From: a virus
Taxonomy: Duplodnaviria; Heunggongvirae; Uroviricota; Caudoviricetes
Length of the DNA stretch: 51,529 nucleotides
Reading direction: 5' to 3' (one strand)
Virus record (IMG/VR): IMGVR_UViG_2617270963_000008
Shown: positions 45,001-51,000 of the stretch, in pieces
Layout of the letters: each line of letters starts with the position of its first letter
Numbering within the stretch: position 1 is the first letter of the stretch
Made by a program: the position numbers

Positions 45001-48000
45001 CTGCGGCACATCCAGAAGGTTAACCCACAGGTCGAGCACGACGGCCTGCACCTGAGGTGGCAGCCCCTGAATAACCTCTGACATTCGCTGTGCAAGCTGT
45101 GCCTTAAACGCCGGTGTCTGCTGAACAGGAGCCAGCGCAATATGTGTATTTAACCTTGAAATATCATTGGTCAGTTCACCATTATCACCTTCAGCATTGA
45201 GAACAATGGTCTGGCGACGCTGGCGATCATCACGATTAATCACCACCGCATGATTACGCCGCTTTTTCAGGCCATCGAGAAGATAAGCGAGCAACAGCCT
45301 TCCCACCTGCTGGCAGGCAAACTGGTAGTTATCGTTGATTTCGGCAAGGGTTGTGGCTCCCTGCTCCACCAGGTTGCTGATCGCCACGCCGGACGATGCA
45401 TTTGAATCCTGCCCGAGAAATGCGGAATAAACCCCCATCGTGTCCTGGATAAGTTTTTCCGACTCCTGCATGACCTGAAACTGCTGGCTGGCAACCTGAA
45501 AATCCTGTTCAACCCGGAAAACATCAGCAACGCTTTTCTGATTTTTTCGGGCCGGATTCAGTTTAATAATGCCATCCGGACGCTCGATCTGCTCCATCAG
45601 CTCGTTGTCTGACAACTGGGTGGCATCCTCGTCCATAATCACGCGTTTGGCCTGAAGCAACCACGTCAGTTTTATACGACGAAAATTCACCTCATCCTGT
45701 GCCGGAATGGCCCGGGAAATCAGCCCGTAAGGCTCCCCGGTTTTATCCTTCCGGTATCCCCAGAAGGGAACCAGCGGGAACATCCCCTGCGGCGCACTGC
45801 AGGGGCGATCCACAATAAAGTGCGGTCCCACAAACCAGGCTTCACGAATACGACTTACCCGCCCGACTCTCACCTGCACCCGCCCGGATGCCACAGCCAC
45901 CGCATGCATCAGATTATTTTTATCAAAGGCCACCACCCGTCCATTACTGAGTTCAATCACCGGAAGACGCTCGAATGTACGGTAATAAACCACCTGAAGC
46001 AGCACACGACGGCGTTCACGCTGAAGCCATTCGTTCTCCTTACGATCCCATGACTGATACTCTTCCCATGCACTCATCAACGGACTGGGCTGGCCTTCAG
46101 TAACCGTGGTATCGACAAAACCACGCCAGTCATCAATGGCATAATCGATAACCTGAGTCATTCCCGGGAATGTGGCTTTTGCCTCATCGGTATCCATCCA
46201 GCGGCGGCGCATCAGCCAGCGGCAGTCACTTAAATCAGCTTCCCGGCTGAGCCAGTCCCAGAACACTTCATTCCGGCTGACAGTAGACACCTTAAACTCA
46301 GGCCCGAACGGATCGCTGTTCCGTCTGACCTCCACCCAGCTGAGCCCCGCCTTGATTTGTTCCGCATAGGCATCAGAGCGGGCTTTATTCATATTGCCAA
46401 GGCGGCATGCATCGGCAAATTCAGCATTAATAGCTTCAGCCAGTTTTTCAGTTTCATCATCTGGCTCGTCTGACATCACCACCAGATCAGTCCGTGTTTT
46501 GGCCTCCATTCCCAGAACACCATCAACGGTAGGCGCGATGAGGTTATGGATAGTCATCGGCTGACCGCGATCTTTCAGTACCTGAAGAACTTCTGGTGGC
46601 AACTGGTCACCATCGTAATACGCACAGGCCTTGTTTGCGGCATCGCGCCATTTAGGCTGACTGTCAATATCAGAACAAAGCGCCTGTAACTGGCGCTGAG
46701 AAAAACGCGGCGTGGCTCCGTTGTCGTTTTTCGTCGCCATGGTATTAGTTTCATTTTTCATCAGTGAGCCATCCAGTGTGTGGTTCTGCGTTTATCCGTT
46801 TTCTGTCTTACCCTCACCGGCATTCTGGCGCGCATCTCCTGGGCAATCATGTAGCTCATAAGCTGATCATCAAAACAGCCTTCCTGTGCATTCATGGAGC
46901 CTTTCGCGTCATAAACGTAGGTGTTCATTTCTGATAATGTGCCCGTCCAGCGGATCCCCGACAGGCCGTTATTCAGCAGCGTTTTCATTCCCTCAGTCAG
47001 GACCGGTTTACTCTGGCGGGTTGTCAGCCAGCCAAGACGGGGCGTATCGTCGTCATATGCCTAGTCAAGGTGCTGTTCGTTGTAGATATAACGCGTCGGA
47101 TAGAGTTCCCGGAGTTTCAGGATAACGGCATGTCCGTGATTGTTACGCTCCGGCCCCACAAACGCGTTGTTGTACATACGGCAGACCTGCGCAATGAGAT
47201 GAGCGAAAAGCTCCGCATCGAGATGACCAAACCAGTGGGCTACCTGCTCACCATTACTACATCTGATGATATCCAGCGATGAGCGGTCTCCGTGCTCCAG
47301 CCCCTCAGCAGTATCCGCTCCGCATACATACTCTTCATCCGGATCCGGTAGCTCCCAGACCAGCAGATAATTCATCAGCGTCCGGTGCTGTTCGGCTTTA
47401 TTCCCGTCACGCAGAGACTGCGCTTTGGTCTTCGTTCCTGTAACCGGTTCAATGTCATAAACAATCAGCGGTGGCGAACAGAATGACTCTGCCTGCAGCG
47501 TGCTTTCCGCACTGAACACCCGTCGTCCGGACGTCAGAAACGCCTCCTGTGGTGTTGAGGGAAACTCCTGCTTCATTTCCTCACGCTGTTCAGTTTCCTT
47601 GCAGATGTACCAGTGTTTCTGCTCATCGGTAAGCGTGATGTTCATTGCTTTTTCAACCGCAGAAAAATACGCTGTTTTTTCCCGTGACAGCTTAAGTCCG
47701 CTTTCCGGCACTCTGGCGCTGTATTTGAGATCCTGCCACCAGGCGTAAAAATGGAATTTATAATCCTGTGGCGTCAGCGCCAGCCCTGATGCAGTGATTT
47801 CCTGTGCCCGGTTACTCATCTCGTAAAAATCGCCACCCACACCTTCAGCAGTGGATTCATCAAAAATAATGCACTCATCAGAGACGGCATTAAGTGTACC
47901 GGTTCGCAGCTCTTTCGCCTTAGCCGGATATTTTGCGCAAATTTTGCCGTGCTCTGAGATATGCAGGCGCTGCACCGTACCTGAACGGAATGAGGTTGCC

Positions 48001-51000
48001 ACCTGGATACTCGAGCCGTGCCCAAACAGGATATAGCCACCGCTGGCTCCGCTACGACGTTCAACGATGGTGAATGAGGCTCTCAGCCAGTCAGGAAGAT
48101 GATCAAACGGTACAGCAATTTTGGTGCGGAAAATTTCACTGGCAGCCTGTTTATCCTGAGCGACAATCCCGCATTTGAGATGCGGTATGAATAATGCCTG
48201 GTCGAGAAGATAAATATCAATGGCCGTGGAAAACCCCAGCTGGCGTGCTTTCAGGATAATATTTTTATTGTGCATGCTCCGGAACAACTGGCGCTGCGCC
48301 GGTCGCATTCTGAAGGTGACCAGCTCACCTTTTTCGTTCTGTATCTTGTAGAGATGATTGAGCCGCCACCAGGGATTGCTCAGTTTAGTCATGATGAACA
48401 GACGTTGTTCGGCCTCTGTCATTTCTGACGGTTCATCACATCGCGGTTCATTCTTCCGGAATGTCATCCAGTCTCCCCGAATTACTCATTTCATGCAGCG
48501 ATGACACGATGTCACTGACAGGCGTAACAACGCCCCGACGCTGGCTGGTCAGAATATCGGTTTCCGCTCTGAGTTTATCTCTGGCAGCGTTGGTTCTTTC
48601 CCGGTCAGCACGAAGTTTTGGTGCTGTTTCAGCCAGAACGTCCAGCGTCAGCAATGAGCGTTCAATTGACTCGATACGGGCAATATTCCGGTCAAGAGCC
48701 TGTTCAGCTTTGAGTATTTTGTCGTACAGAGCAACGCGGGTTTCCACGTCAGCCGCCTCTTTCAGGTCGGCGAACATTTTTTTCAGTGTTCCTGTTACTG
48801 AAAGTGCGCGGGCCCGGGTAAACACCAGTTCATCGGCAAGTTCCATTCCGACTGCATCATCTATGAGGTTATCTGCCTCGAGATACTTCGCGTATCCACG
48901 GTGTCTGACGGCGTGGGTGTTACGCTGAGAAAAAGCATTTGAAGGTGGCAAAAGTCTGGAACCACGAGTCCGTTTCGTTTCTGCCAAATTTGCGCATTTT
49001 TCATCACAACCATCATCGCCTGAAGGCTCGTCATGACTGGAGTTGCCGTCAGATTTCTGCGCACTTTTTTGATCATCAATTTGCGCATTTTTCTGCGCAC
49101 TTTTCTCTGTATTTCTGGGGGAGTGTTTGCGCAGTTTAATGTACCGCCGAGCCGTGTCATAACTGATATTGTTCTGACGGCACCAGTCCTGAAGCTTTAT
49201 GCCGGTTTTGACATGTTCGCGTCGAAATGCCTGCTCCAGCTTTTTCCAGTCCAGCTTTGCCATGTCACCTTCTGACGTTCTCTGTTAAAAACTGATGCAC
49301 AATGACTGCTGTAAATTTTCAGATTTCACACAGCAGAGCCATGTCTGATTAATGTTTAACCTTATTTAGGTTATATCCGCTTCATTCCACTACAGCACCA
49401 GATAGGCTGCCTCGCGGATAAATGCCAAAGTCTCCTGATATAGAAACCCGTCGCCACATCGAGCGCTGATCAACATTTGTATATTCACTGCGACAGAAAG
49501 AATTTATTTTATTGAATAGTTAGAAATACAGAATTGCATGCTTTATAAGCATTGACGCACACTTCATTTTTAGCAATATATTCTGTTCTCATAGACGATC
49601 AGCCCTGCATGCACTGCCGGACACCGTCGGCAATTTTACAGACCTAAGAGGCAATACCAAAAAGCTAACGCGCTTTATCAAGACTTGAGCAACCAACCAA
49701 TAAAAAAAGCACCAGTACCGCTACCAATGCCCATTTCGTCGTTGTTCACAGCATTCTGTGTACCCACTGTATTTCGCGTCATATCACCACGTCAGACAAT
49801 CCTTAAGGATTACATAAGATTTACGCATAATAATGCCCATTTTCAACACAGACAAGGGAATTTATATGTTAAATCAAACGCTAACAAAATCTCTTCTTAT
49901 ATTTTTACTTGTCATAATCGTTTCTGTATCCATCATATACATTGTAAGAACTCCAGTCAGACTTGATGTGAACGATGTCACTGAGATTAACCAGAAACAT
50001 CCCATTATTTTTCTCATCCGGCATGGGGAAAGATGCGATCGCTCCCAAAGAATATGTCTTTCAGCACATGAGGGAATCACAGTAAACGGAGCTAACAAAG
50101 CTCAACAATATGGAGATAAATTCAGAAGAATGTTTCCATACTACAGTCTCTATTCTACAGACACACTCCGAACAATGCAGACAGCCACTTTTTTTTCGGG
50201 AGGTAAGACAGCAACTATTCCGGACATATCGACATGTGATGATAACGCAGTAAATAATATCCTTAAAATATCAAAATCAGATCATGTTACTGTGATTTTC
50301 ACACATAATCACTGTCTGTCCAGAATTGCAAAAAAAATGAATGGATGGAGATTTAAACCTGATTATATGGGCACACTGGTTCTGCATCGGGAAAATCACA
50401 ATCTGATTCTCGACGGACATTTAAAACCAAACGAGCTTACCCAGTGATCCATTTGTTGATAATGCACTGGCATTGATTCAGGTTATATCTCTCCTCATAA
50501 AAAAGGCCAGCGATTGAGCTGGCTCTGTTAATCGAGGCATTGCATCCTGATGTACTCCTGCAGGTAGTTAACCTGCGCGGTTATCTTGTCGATTCCACTT
50601 CGGAGACGGTAATAATTGAGTTCAGCATCTGCTGTAAGTCCTGAGCTTTCTCCATCGCCCATGCCGCTGGCTCCGGTCGTTGACTTTGCACAGGTGGCGG
50701 CGACTTGCAGGCGCTTACGCCCAGCAGAAACATCAGCACGGAGACTTTCAATAGTCGCGTTAGCATCAGCAAGCTCCCTGGTGTATCTGGCATCGAGTGC
50801 AGCAACATCACGCTGGCGCTGCTGTATGTCAGCAATGGTGGCGTTCGCCTGGCTGAGTTTTGTCTTCGCATCATCTCGCTGCTCTTTGTAGGTGATGGCG
50901 TTATCACGGTAATGGTCTGTTGCCAGCCACAGCGATCCACAACCAAGCAGCAGGACAATAAGCACGCCATACAGCACACGATTCATATCACCACCAACGG

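Follow-up and report, generated by a model that had tools for sequence, protein, structure and literature searches.

An amber codon at a Dcm site truncates the large terminase gene of a 933W-like Escherichia coli prophage, probably leaving it packaging-defective

In the 51,529-nucleotide (nt) stretch of DNA recorded as IMGVR_UViG_2617270963_000008 (hereafter the window, with positions counted from its first letter), the gene for the large terminase subunit, terL, is interrupted by an in-frame amber codon, beyond which the same frame runs on to the start of the portal gene. The window is a draft Escherichia coli contig with the late half of a prophage of the 933W-like (Sepvirinae) type. The prophage occupies ynfG, next to ynfF and ynfE, the same site as in E. 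coli FORC_069. The features surrounding the interruption, with product lengths in amino acids (aa), are as follows.

48448..49263, minus strand: gene for the small terminase subunit (terS), 271 aa, intact, 100% identical to WP_001086085.1; overlaps the terL start by 20 nt.
47064..48467, minus strand: terL codons 1–468, encoding the ATPase domain as well as the first half of the nuclease domain, in which D385 and E440 lie.
47061..47063, minus strand: premature amber codon TAG in place of the ancestral CAG (Gln) at terL codon 469.
46761..47060, minus strand: untranslated terL remnant, codons 470–568 and TGA, carrying LGWLTT/QSKP, D533-D534, and W565-M566.
44617..46761, minus strand: portal gene, 714 aa, intact, full length and 99.86% identical in comparison with FORC_069; matches Pfam P22_portal.

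The terL open reading frame (ORF; 48467..47061) starts with ATG and comprises 468 codons followed by TAG, that is, CTA on the plus strand at 47061–47063; the ORF listing and the translation agree on this point with the original prediction, which had been made from the sequence alone. Past the stop, the through-translation reads ...NEQHLD-stop-AYDDDTPRLGWLTTRQSKPVLTEGMKTLL... and runs on for a further 99 codons, up to the TGA at 46761–46763. As had also been predicted, these 99 stop-free codons consist of 24 codons and a 75-codon ORF beginning with ATG (46764..46988, or 46761..46988 including its stop). Since the probability of 99 stop-free codons in random sequence is only about (61/64)^99 = 0.009 by simple arithmetic, the continuation of the terL frame is not accidental. 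Two details of the earlier description had to be corrected. The junction with the portal gene, given as an ATGA overlap of four bases, is in fact TGATG, in which the portal ATG and the original terL TGA have a single base (46761) in common. Furthermore, the head module, described as P22-like, is of the 933W/Sepvirinae type (93.6% nt identity to 933W), although the portal protein does match the Pfam family named after P22.

The original prediction had offered two explanations for this arrangement, namely a terL of about 568 codons with a nonsense mutation or an unusual small gene between terL and portal, and comparison with related phages and prophages clearly favored the former. The terS-terL-portal region shows nt identities of 93.6% to 933W, 99.2% to Shigella phage POCJ13, 99.8% to a prophage of the O104:H4 outbreak lineage, and 99.9% to the prophages carried by E. 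coli FORC_069 and strains related to it. In all nine close relatives inspected (POCJ13, 933W, GER2, PhiR5_2, phiSTEC801, FORC_069, O104:H4 2011C-3493, cM8a, and ML35), terL is annotated as a single 1707-nt coding sequence of 568 codons, ending one base inside the portal gene, and ungapped comparison revealed a sense codon, CAG (Gln), at position 469 in nine of nine, the TAG being found in the window only. Residue 469 is the sole difference among the 568 residues between the TerL proteins of the window and POCJ13, and codons 1–468 translate identically to the intact TerL WP_001387707.1, from which the window protein likewise differs at residue 469 only. Compared with FORC_069, the window has three differences in 4.8 kilobases (kb), all private to the window lineage: a synonymous change at T386, the amber codon replacing Q469, and A202T in the portal protein. 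933W L0113 (AAD25456.1), POCJ13 gp48 (YP_009100270.1), and E. coli WP_001387707.1 represent the same gene in the same terS-terL-portal order as in the window, but these TerL proteins of Shiga toxin (Stx) phages and other Sepvirinae are intact with 568 aa, whereas the window copy stops at codon 469.

The same picture was obtained on a wider scale. The region has matches spanning most of it in about 187 phage records and 421 complete E. coli genomes; in the annotated ones, the gene is one 1707-nt coding sequence. Moreover, TerL homologues with 68–85% identity from seven other genera (Salmonella, Citrobacter, Yersinia, Pectobacterium, Serratia, Brenneria, and Erwinia) are 553–583 aa long and cover 97–100% of the 568-aa query, and none of them ends near residue 468; the ORF of the window, with 468 aa, falls outside this family length, while the terS-terL-portal order is kept. 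It is true that a weak GAGG-like sequence precedes the ATG of the 75-codon ORF and that gene callers and GenBank list the 75-aa ORF apart as a 'putative large subunit terminase' (E. coli 1-110-08_S3_C1 and C3), as might be expected if the locus held two real genes, one for a 468-aa TerL and another for a separate small protein of 75–99 aa preceding portal. However, no relative has a stop at this position, all the homologues being one protein, the only profiles that the 99-aa segment matches are those of terminases, in their C-terminal parts, and residues 470–493, including the invariant LGWLTT/QSKP block, would belong to neither product. No complete terminase ending at this position with a conserved small ORF downstream was found among the homologues compared, and we regard the existence of two genes as extremely improbable. 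Judging from the reading frame, the 75-codon ORF simply starts at an internal in-frame ATG within the terL remnant and corresponds to the C-terminal end of TerL; a separate small gene, being read through as one protein in the homologues, was rejected.

A single-base difference in a draft assembly could also be an artefact, with CAG as the true codon, and sequencing error had indeed been raised as an option in the original prediction. However, the exact 468-aa product was found on at least 24 contigs (40 index blocks) from independent projects in NCBI, ENA, and Logan, including one metagenome assembly, and the amber allele is also present on an IMG/VR contig. Six carrier contigs are 99.96–99.99% identical to the window across 11–14 kb, and all six carriers fetched match it at six sites that differ from FORC_069 (47310, 47063, 46158, 44442, 44236, and 40643), yet each of them has a few private changes of its own. 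Such recurrence in independent data excludes a sequencing or assembly error for practical purposes, and the common six-site haplotype together with the private changes indicates that the allele had one origin followed by descent. The allele is rare: a test with a 61-mer detected the TAG version neither among 5,426 complete E. coli genomes nor in any phage record, while the intact ancestral protein WP_001387707.1 occurs on at least 1,000 contigs.

The segment behind the stop is among the best-conserved parts of TerL. In an alignment of 23 sequences, the residues invariant past the stop are D472, D473, L478-G-W-L-T-T483, Q485-S-K-P488, D533, D534, W565, and M566, whereas residue 469 itself is variable (Q, R, or H). 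TerL matches the PHROG profile phrog_2, 'terminase large subunit' (E = 3.6e-52), and the matches of the 99-aa tail are confined to the C-terminal parts of PHROG terminase profiles. When the 568-aa conceptual product was aligned to full-length terminases, as had been proposed with the original prediction, the nuclease domain was found to continue beyond the TAG. Indeed, bacteriophage T4 gp17 (PDB 3CPE and 3EZK; 3C6A for the nuclease domain of RB49) is homologous in both the ATPase domain, at TerL residues 47–153, and the nuclease domain, at residues 372–542, across the stop, although the similarity is only distant (E = 3.6e-8 with the single sequence and 3.6e-10 with the family profile). Column by column, D385, E440, and D534 of TerL pair with D401, E458, and D542 of gp17, and D533-D534 with D541-D542; D401, E458, and D542 constitute the catalytic triad of the headful nuclease (PMC3074133). 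D534 lies 65 codons past the stop, so that the 468-aa product retains D385 and E440 and is without the third acidic residue, as well as without the whole segment aligned to gp17 residues 479–550. The product therefore does not contain a complete three-acid RNase H-like nuclease domain, although the gene is by descent a terL of the 933W/Sepvirinae family and, more remotely, belongs with the headful terminases of the T4 gp17 type. From the loss of D534, the LGWLTT/QSKP block, and the conserved C-terminus, it is inferred that the 468-aa TerL would be nuclease-dead, with a probably misfolded C-terminal domain, and hence incapable of packaging DNA.

In the retained N-terminal part, TerL residues 72–80 (48241–48267, minus strand) read KARQLGFST, in comparison with the Walker A sequence SRQLGKTT of gp17; the canonical Lys position is occupied by Phe, K73 and R75 upstream of it are invariant, and the segment is conserved in all 23 homologues aligned. 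This segment may represent a deviant Walker A motif.

The nature of the base change suggests how the amber codon arose. The changed base is at 47063 (T on the minus strand, A on the plus strand). The intact allele reads GAC-CAG-GCA and contains CCAGG, which conforms to the Dcm methylation site CC(A/T)GG and is one of six such sites in terL; the ancestral ACCAGGC has become ACTAGGC by a C-to-T transition at the inner C of the site. The classic amber hotspots of lacI occur at the second C of CCAGG and are attributed to 5-methylcytosine turning into thymine by deamination (Coulondre et al. 1978; review, PMC12606429), and the resulting T:G mismatch is normally mended by very-short-patch (VSP) repair (PMC2715241). 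The change in terL is the same, CAG to TAG with CCAGG becoming CTAGG, with the difference that the lacI hotspots derive from laboratory mutation spectra, whereas here a single natural allele is concerned and methylation of the site is presumed. These features are suggestive of deamination of a Dcm-methylated 5-methylcytosine that escaped VSP repair as the likeliest origin of the allele.

Possibly, though we think it the less probable course, the same nonsense mutation arose by an ordinary replication error or by deamination of an unmethylated cytosine, its position in a Dcm site being coincidental. Of the 55 G:C-to-A:T nonsense transitions that terL allows, 6 fall in Dcm sites (11%, a chance that is not negligible), and these make up 6 of all 227 possible nonsense substitutions (2.6%); the other two substitutions near terL that are private to the lineage (47310 and 46158) are transitions outside Dcm sites. 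On the other hand, the exact base, direction, and context all match the documented hotspot. The other Dcm sites in terL that would give TAG on deamination were also considered:

48198–48200, minus strand: codon 90.
48003–48005, minus strand: codon 155.
47739–47741, minus strand: codon 243.
46839–46841, minus strand: codon 543.

The 542-aa product predicted for an amber codon at Q543 (Q543am) is present, at the protein level only, on six contigs, one of them of 189 kb, whereas the product look-up found none for control CAG codons outside Dcm sites at positions 528, 485, 427, and 245, in disagreement with mere coincidence. As for short products, those of the other Dcm codons (242, 154, and 89 aa) were found and so were those of two controls (165 and 103 aa), but all of them bear the label 'partial' and could be artefacts of contig ends; among the products of the other Dcm sites, we thus counted the 542-aa one alone, as a suggestive indication. 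Neither the Q543am nor the Q90am 61-mer had an exact match in complete E. coli genomes, and the Q543am pattern had no match in IMG/VR.

Apart from terL, the late half of the prophage is well preserved. All of the about 30 other late genes of the FORC_069 prophage, comprising Rz, terS, portal, a scaffold-like gene, capsid, head-tail genes, tail genes, and the gene for a giant protein, are present in the window at full length and without internal stops. The amber codon is the only point lesion of the late operon, and the intactness of the other late genes points to a recent inactivation by a single hit. The contig itself is bounded by copies of an insertion sequence (IS):

66–512 and 51083–51529, in inverted orientation: identical 447-base-pair ends of the IS3 family, each with a 108-aa orfA.

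The prophage-side IS3 terminus, ...GGGGCGGTTCA, adjoins the sequence just upstream of Rz and removes the first 6 codons of a 37-aa ORF, while in one carrier contig (L014) the same terminus lies inside a DUF826 gene, upstream of intact holin and lysozyme genes. Either the IS inserted twice independently, or in the window lineage it brought about the deletion of some 1.1 kb of lysis genes; the IS end of the window may mark the place where the holin and lysozyme genes were lost or became separated from the prophage. In FORC_069, the closest intact relative, no stx is annotated between Q and the lysis genes. Another carrier contig (L017), seen in four samples, has a one-base deletion in the major capsid gene (7146–8359, corresponding to window position 43127) that splits it into ORFs of 103 and 292 aa, so that this amber haplotype bears a second inactivating lesion. 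The changes that followed the amber mutation in the carriers, three non-synonymous, one frameshift, and no synonymous, fit relaxed selection, although they are far too few to test.

Collectively, we consider, with a probability of roughly 0.85, that the locus is a normal 568-codon terL in which one C-to-T transition has converted the Gln469 codon to amber, and that it belongs to a recently inactivated, packaging-defective prophage; among the options given in the original prediction, the defective prophage is thus best in accord with a truncated TerL devoid of the third nuclease acid. In the presumed course of events, the 5-methylcytosine at the inner C of CCAGG would have been deaminated to thymine and missed by VSP repair. 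Translation would then end after residue 468, retaining the ATPase domain together with D385 and E440 and losing the last 100 residues, and the truncated TerL, its nuclease domain probably unfolded, would make neither initiating nor headful cuts. The prophage would still express its late genes but could not package DNA. Translation of portal may also be lowered, as ribosomes would stop 297 nt short of TGATG, the junction through which terL and portal are normally coupled. Classical amber mutants of phage packaging genes and the decaying cryptic prophages of E. coli are comparable in that a single nonsense codon disrupts a gene essential for morphogenesis. The prophage of the window is otherwise intact and has been inherited vertically, with secondary lesions added later, and, unlike the ambers obtained by laboratory mutagenesis, Q469am arose and persists in natural isolates.

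Several points weigh against this interpretation. A random G:C-to-A:T nonsense transition would hit a Dcm site about 11% of the time, as calculated above, and the host tRNA (transfer RNA) genes as well as dcm and vsr lie outside the window. Searches of Pfam and NCBIfam gave no family match for this TerL, so that the domain assignment was made from the PHROG and T4 gp17 alignments. The AlphaFold2 model of the intact TerL was poor, with a mean pLDDT (predicted local distance difference test) of 49.9 and values below 50 for residues 464–568, its input being the 23-sequence alignment, which is too shallow, with listed homologues all at least 68% identical; the lost parts were accordingly mapped by sequence alignment only. 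Furthermore, basal readthrough of UAG with insertion of Gln would rebuild the wild-type TerL at a low level, and, as residue 469 varies among Q, R, and H, most suppressors would restore function.

The last two points lead to a phage that is conditionally viable, being infectious at reduced yield through suppression by a supE-type tRNA-Gln(CUA) or through leakiness with near-cognate tRNA-Gln. The CAG-to-TAG change is reversed exactly by Gln insertion, E. coli is known to insert Q, Y, W, and K at UAG by near-cognate decoding (PMC4333366), and stop codons overall are read through at 1e-3 to 1e-2 (PMC10570021); the tolerance of residue 469 and the intactness of all the other late genes would also agree with continued function. 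Nevertheless, ARAGORN detected no tRNA in the window nor in 20 kb of the early and lysis region of the closest intact prophage, and UAG readthrough is low (PMC10570021). The further lesions of the carriers, that is, the capsid frameshift seen in four samples and the IS3 junctions in the lysis region, do not fit selection for function, and the allele is absent from the deposited phage records and the 5,426 complete genomes. Conditional viability is therefore judged unlikely. Programmed readthrough or recoding was rejected, since the stop is not conserved (CAG in nine of nine relatives, and Q, R, or H in distant homologues) and no phage tRNA was found in the regions scanned.

A more speculative proposal, which we hold to be very unlikely, is that the amber codon acts as a hypermutable and leaky switch, by which VSP reversion and readthrough keep the prophage attenuated but recoverable; CTAGG-to-CCAGG changes are reportedly stimulated by Vsr (PMC2715241). 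If so, the lytic cost to the host would be low, with occasional reversion to full infectivity. In a variant of this proposal, the 468-aa TerL would be dominant-negative, and an ATPase-only protein would interfere with the packaging of superinfecting 933W-like phages.

The favored event, a nonsense mutation that inactivates terL, belongs to two known classes, the pseudogenisation of a prophage morphogenesis gene by a nonsense codon and the C-to-T change at a Dcm site. It is genuine but ordinary prophage decay and represents no new kind of system. Its value lies mainly in annotation: a single terL pseudogene (Q469amber) should replace the two ORFs of 468 and 75 aa, now listed as a terminase and a small 'putative large subunit terminase', and the prophage should be scored as probably packaging-defective even though its late operon is otherwise complete, which bears on how inducible and how mobile the 933W-like prophages of this E. 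coli lineage are predicted to be. It also offers a clean natural case of the textbook Dcm-site amber hotspot at an early stage, with a sole point lesion in about 30 late genes. Q469am could also serve as a natural amber allele for suppression and complementation tests of 933W-type terminases.

Some other features of the window were noted. Between Rz and terS, on the opposite strand (49866–50444, plus), there is a gene that the annotation of relatives assigns to a lipopolysaccharide core heptose(II)-phosphate phosphatase (weak His_Phos_1 match); it shares 100% identity with WP_000934362.1 and has the appearance of a cargo ('moron') gene within the late region. The tail-fibre gene (38440–40065, minus), with collagen-like and Peptidase_S74 domains, encodes 541 aa in the window and in carrier L012, 635 aa in carrier L013, and 671 aa in FORC_069, which probably reflects length variation in a repeat region among near-identical prophages. 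The tail region also contains small accessory genes (32263–33345 and 37575–37799, minus) for a Hok/Gef-family toxin, the Cor exclusion lipoprotein, and an outer-membrane protein of the Ail/Lom family, whose identity to its FORC_069 counterpart is only 80%. At the end of the tail module, a giant ORF (20619–28970, minus) of about 2,783–2,784 aa is intact and 99.2% identical to the LPD38 domain protein of FORC_069. Beyond about position 39000, the window and FORC_069 are mosaic, with about 98% identity and with insertions and deletions. In the host flank (1–5688), collinearity with FORC_069 is lost past rspB, which in FORC_069 is followed by ydfJ; this flank contains ORFs of 835 and 431 aa.

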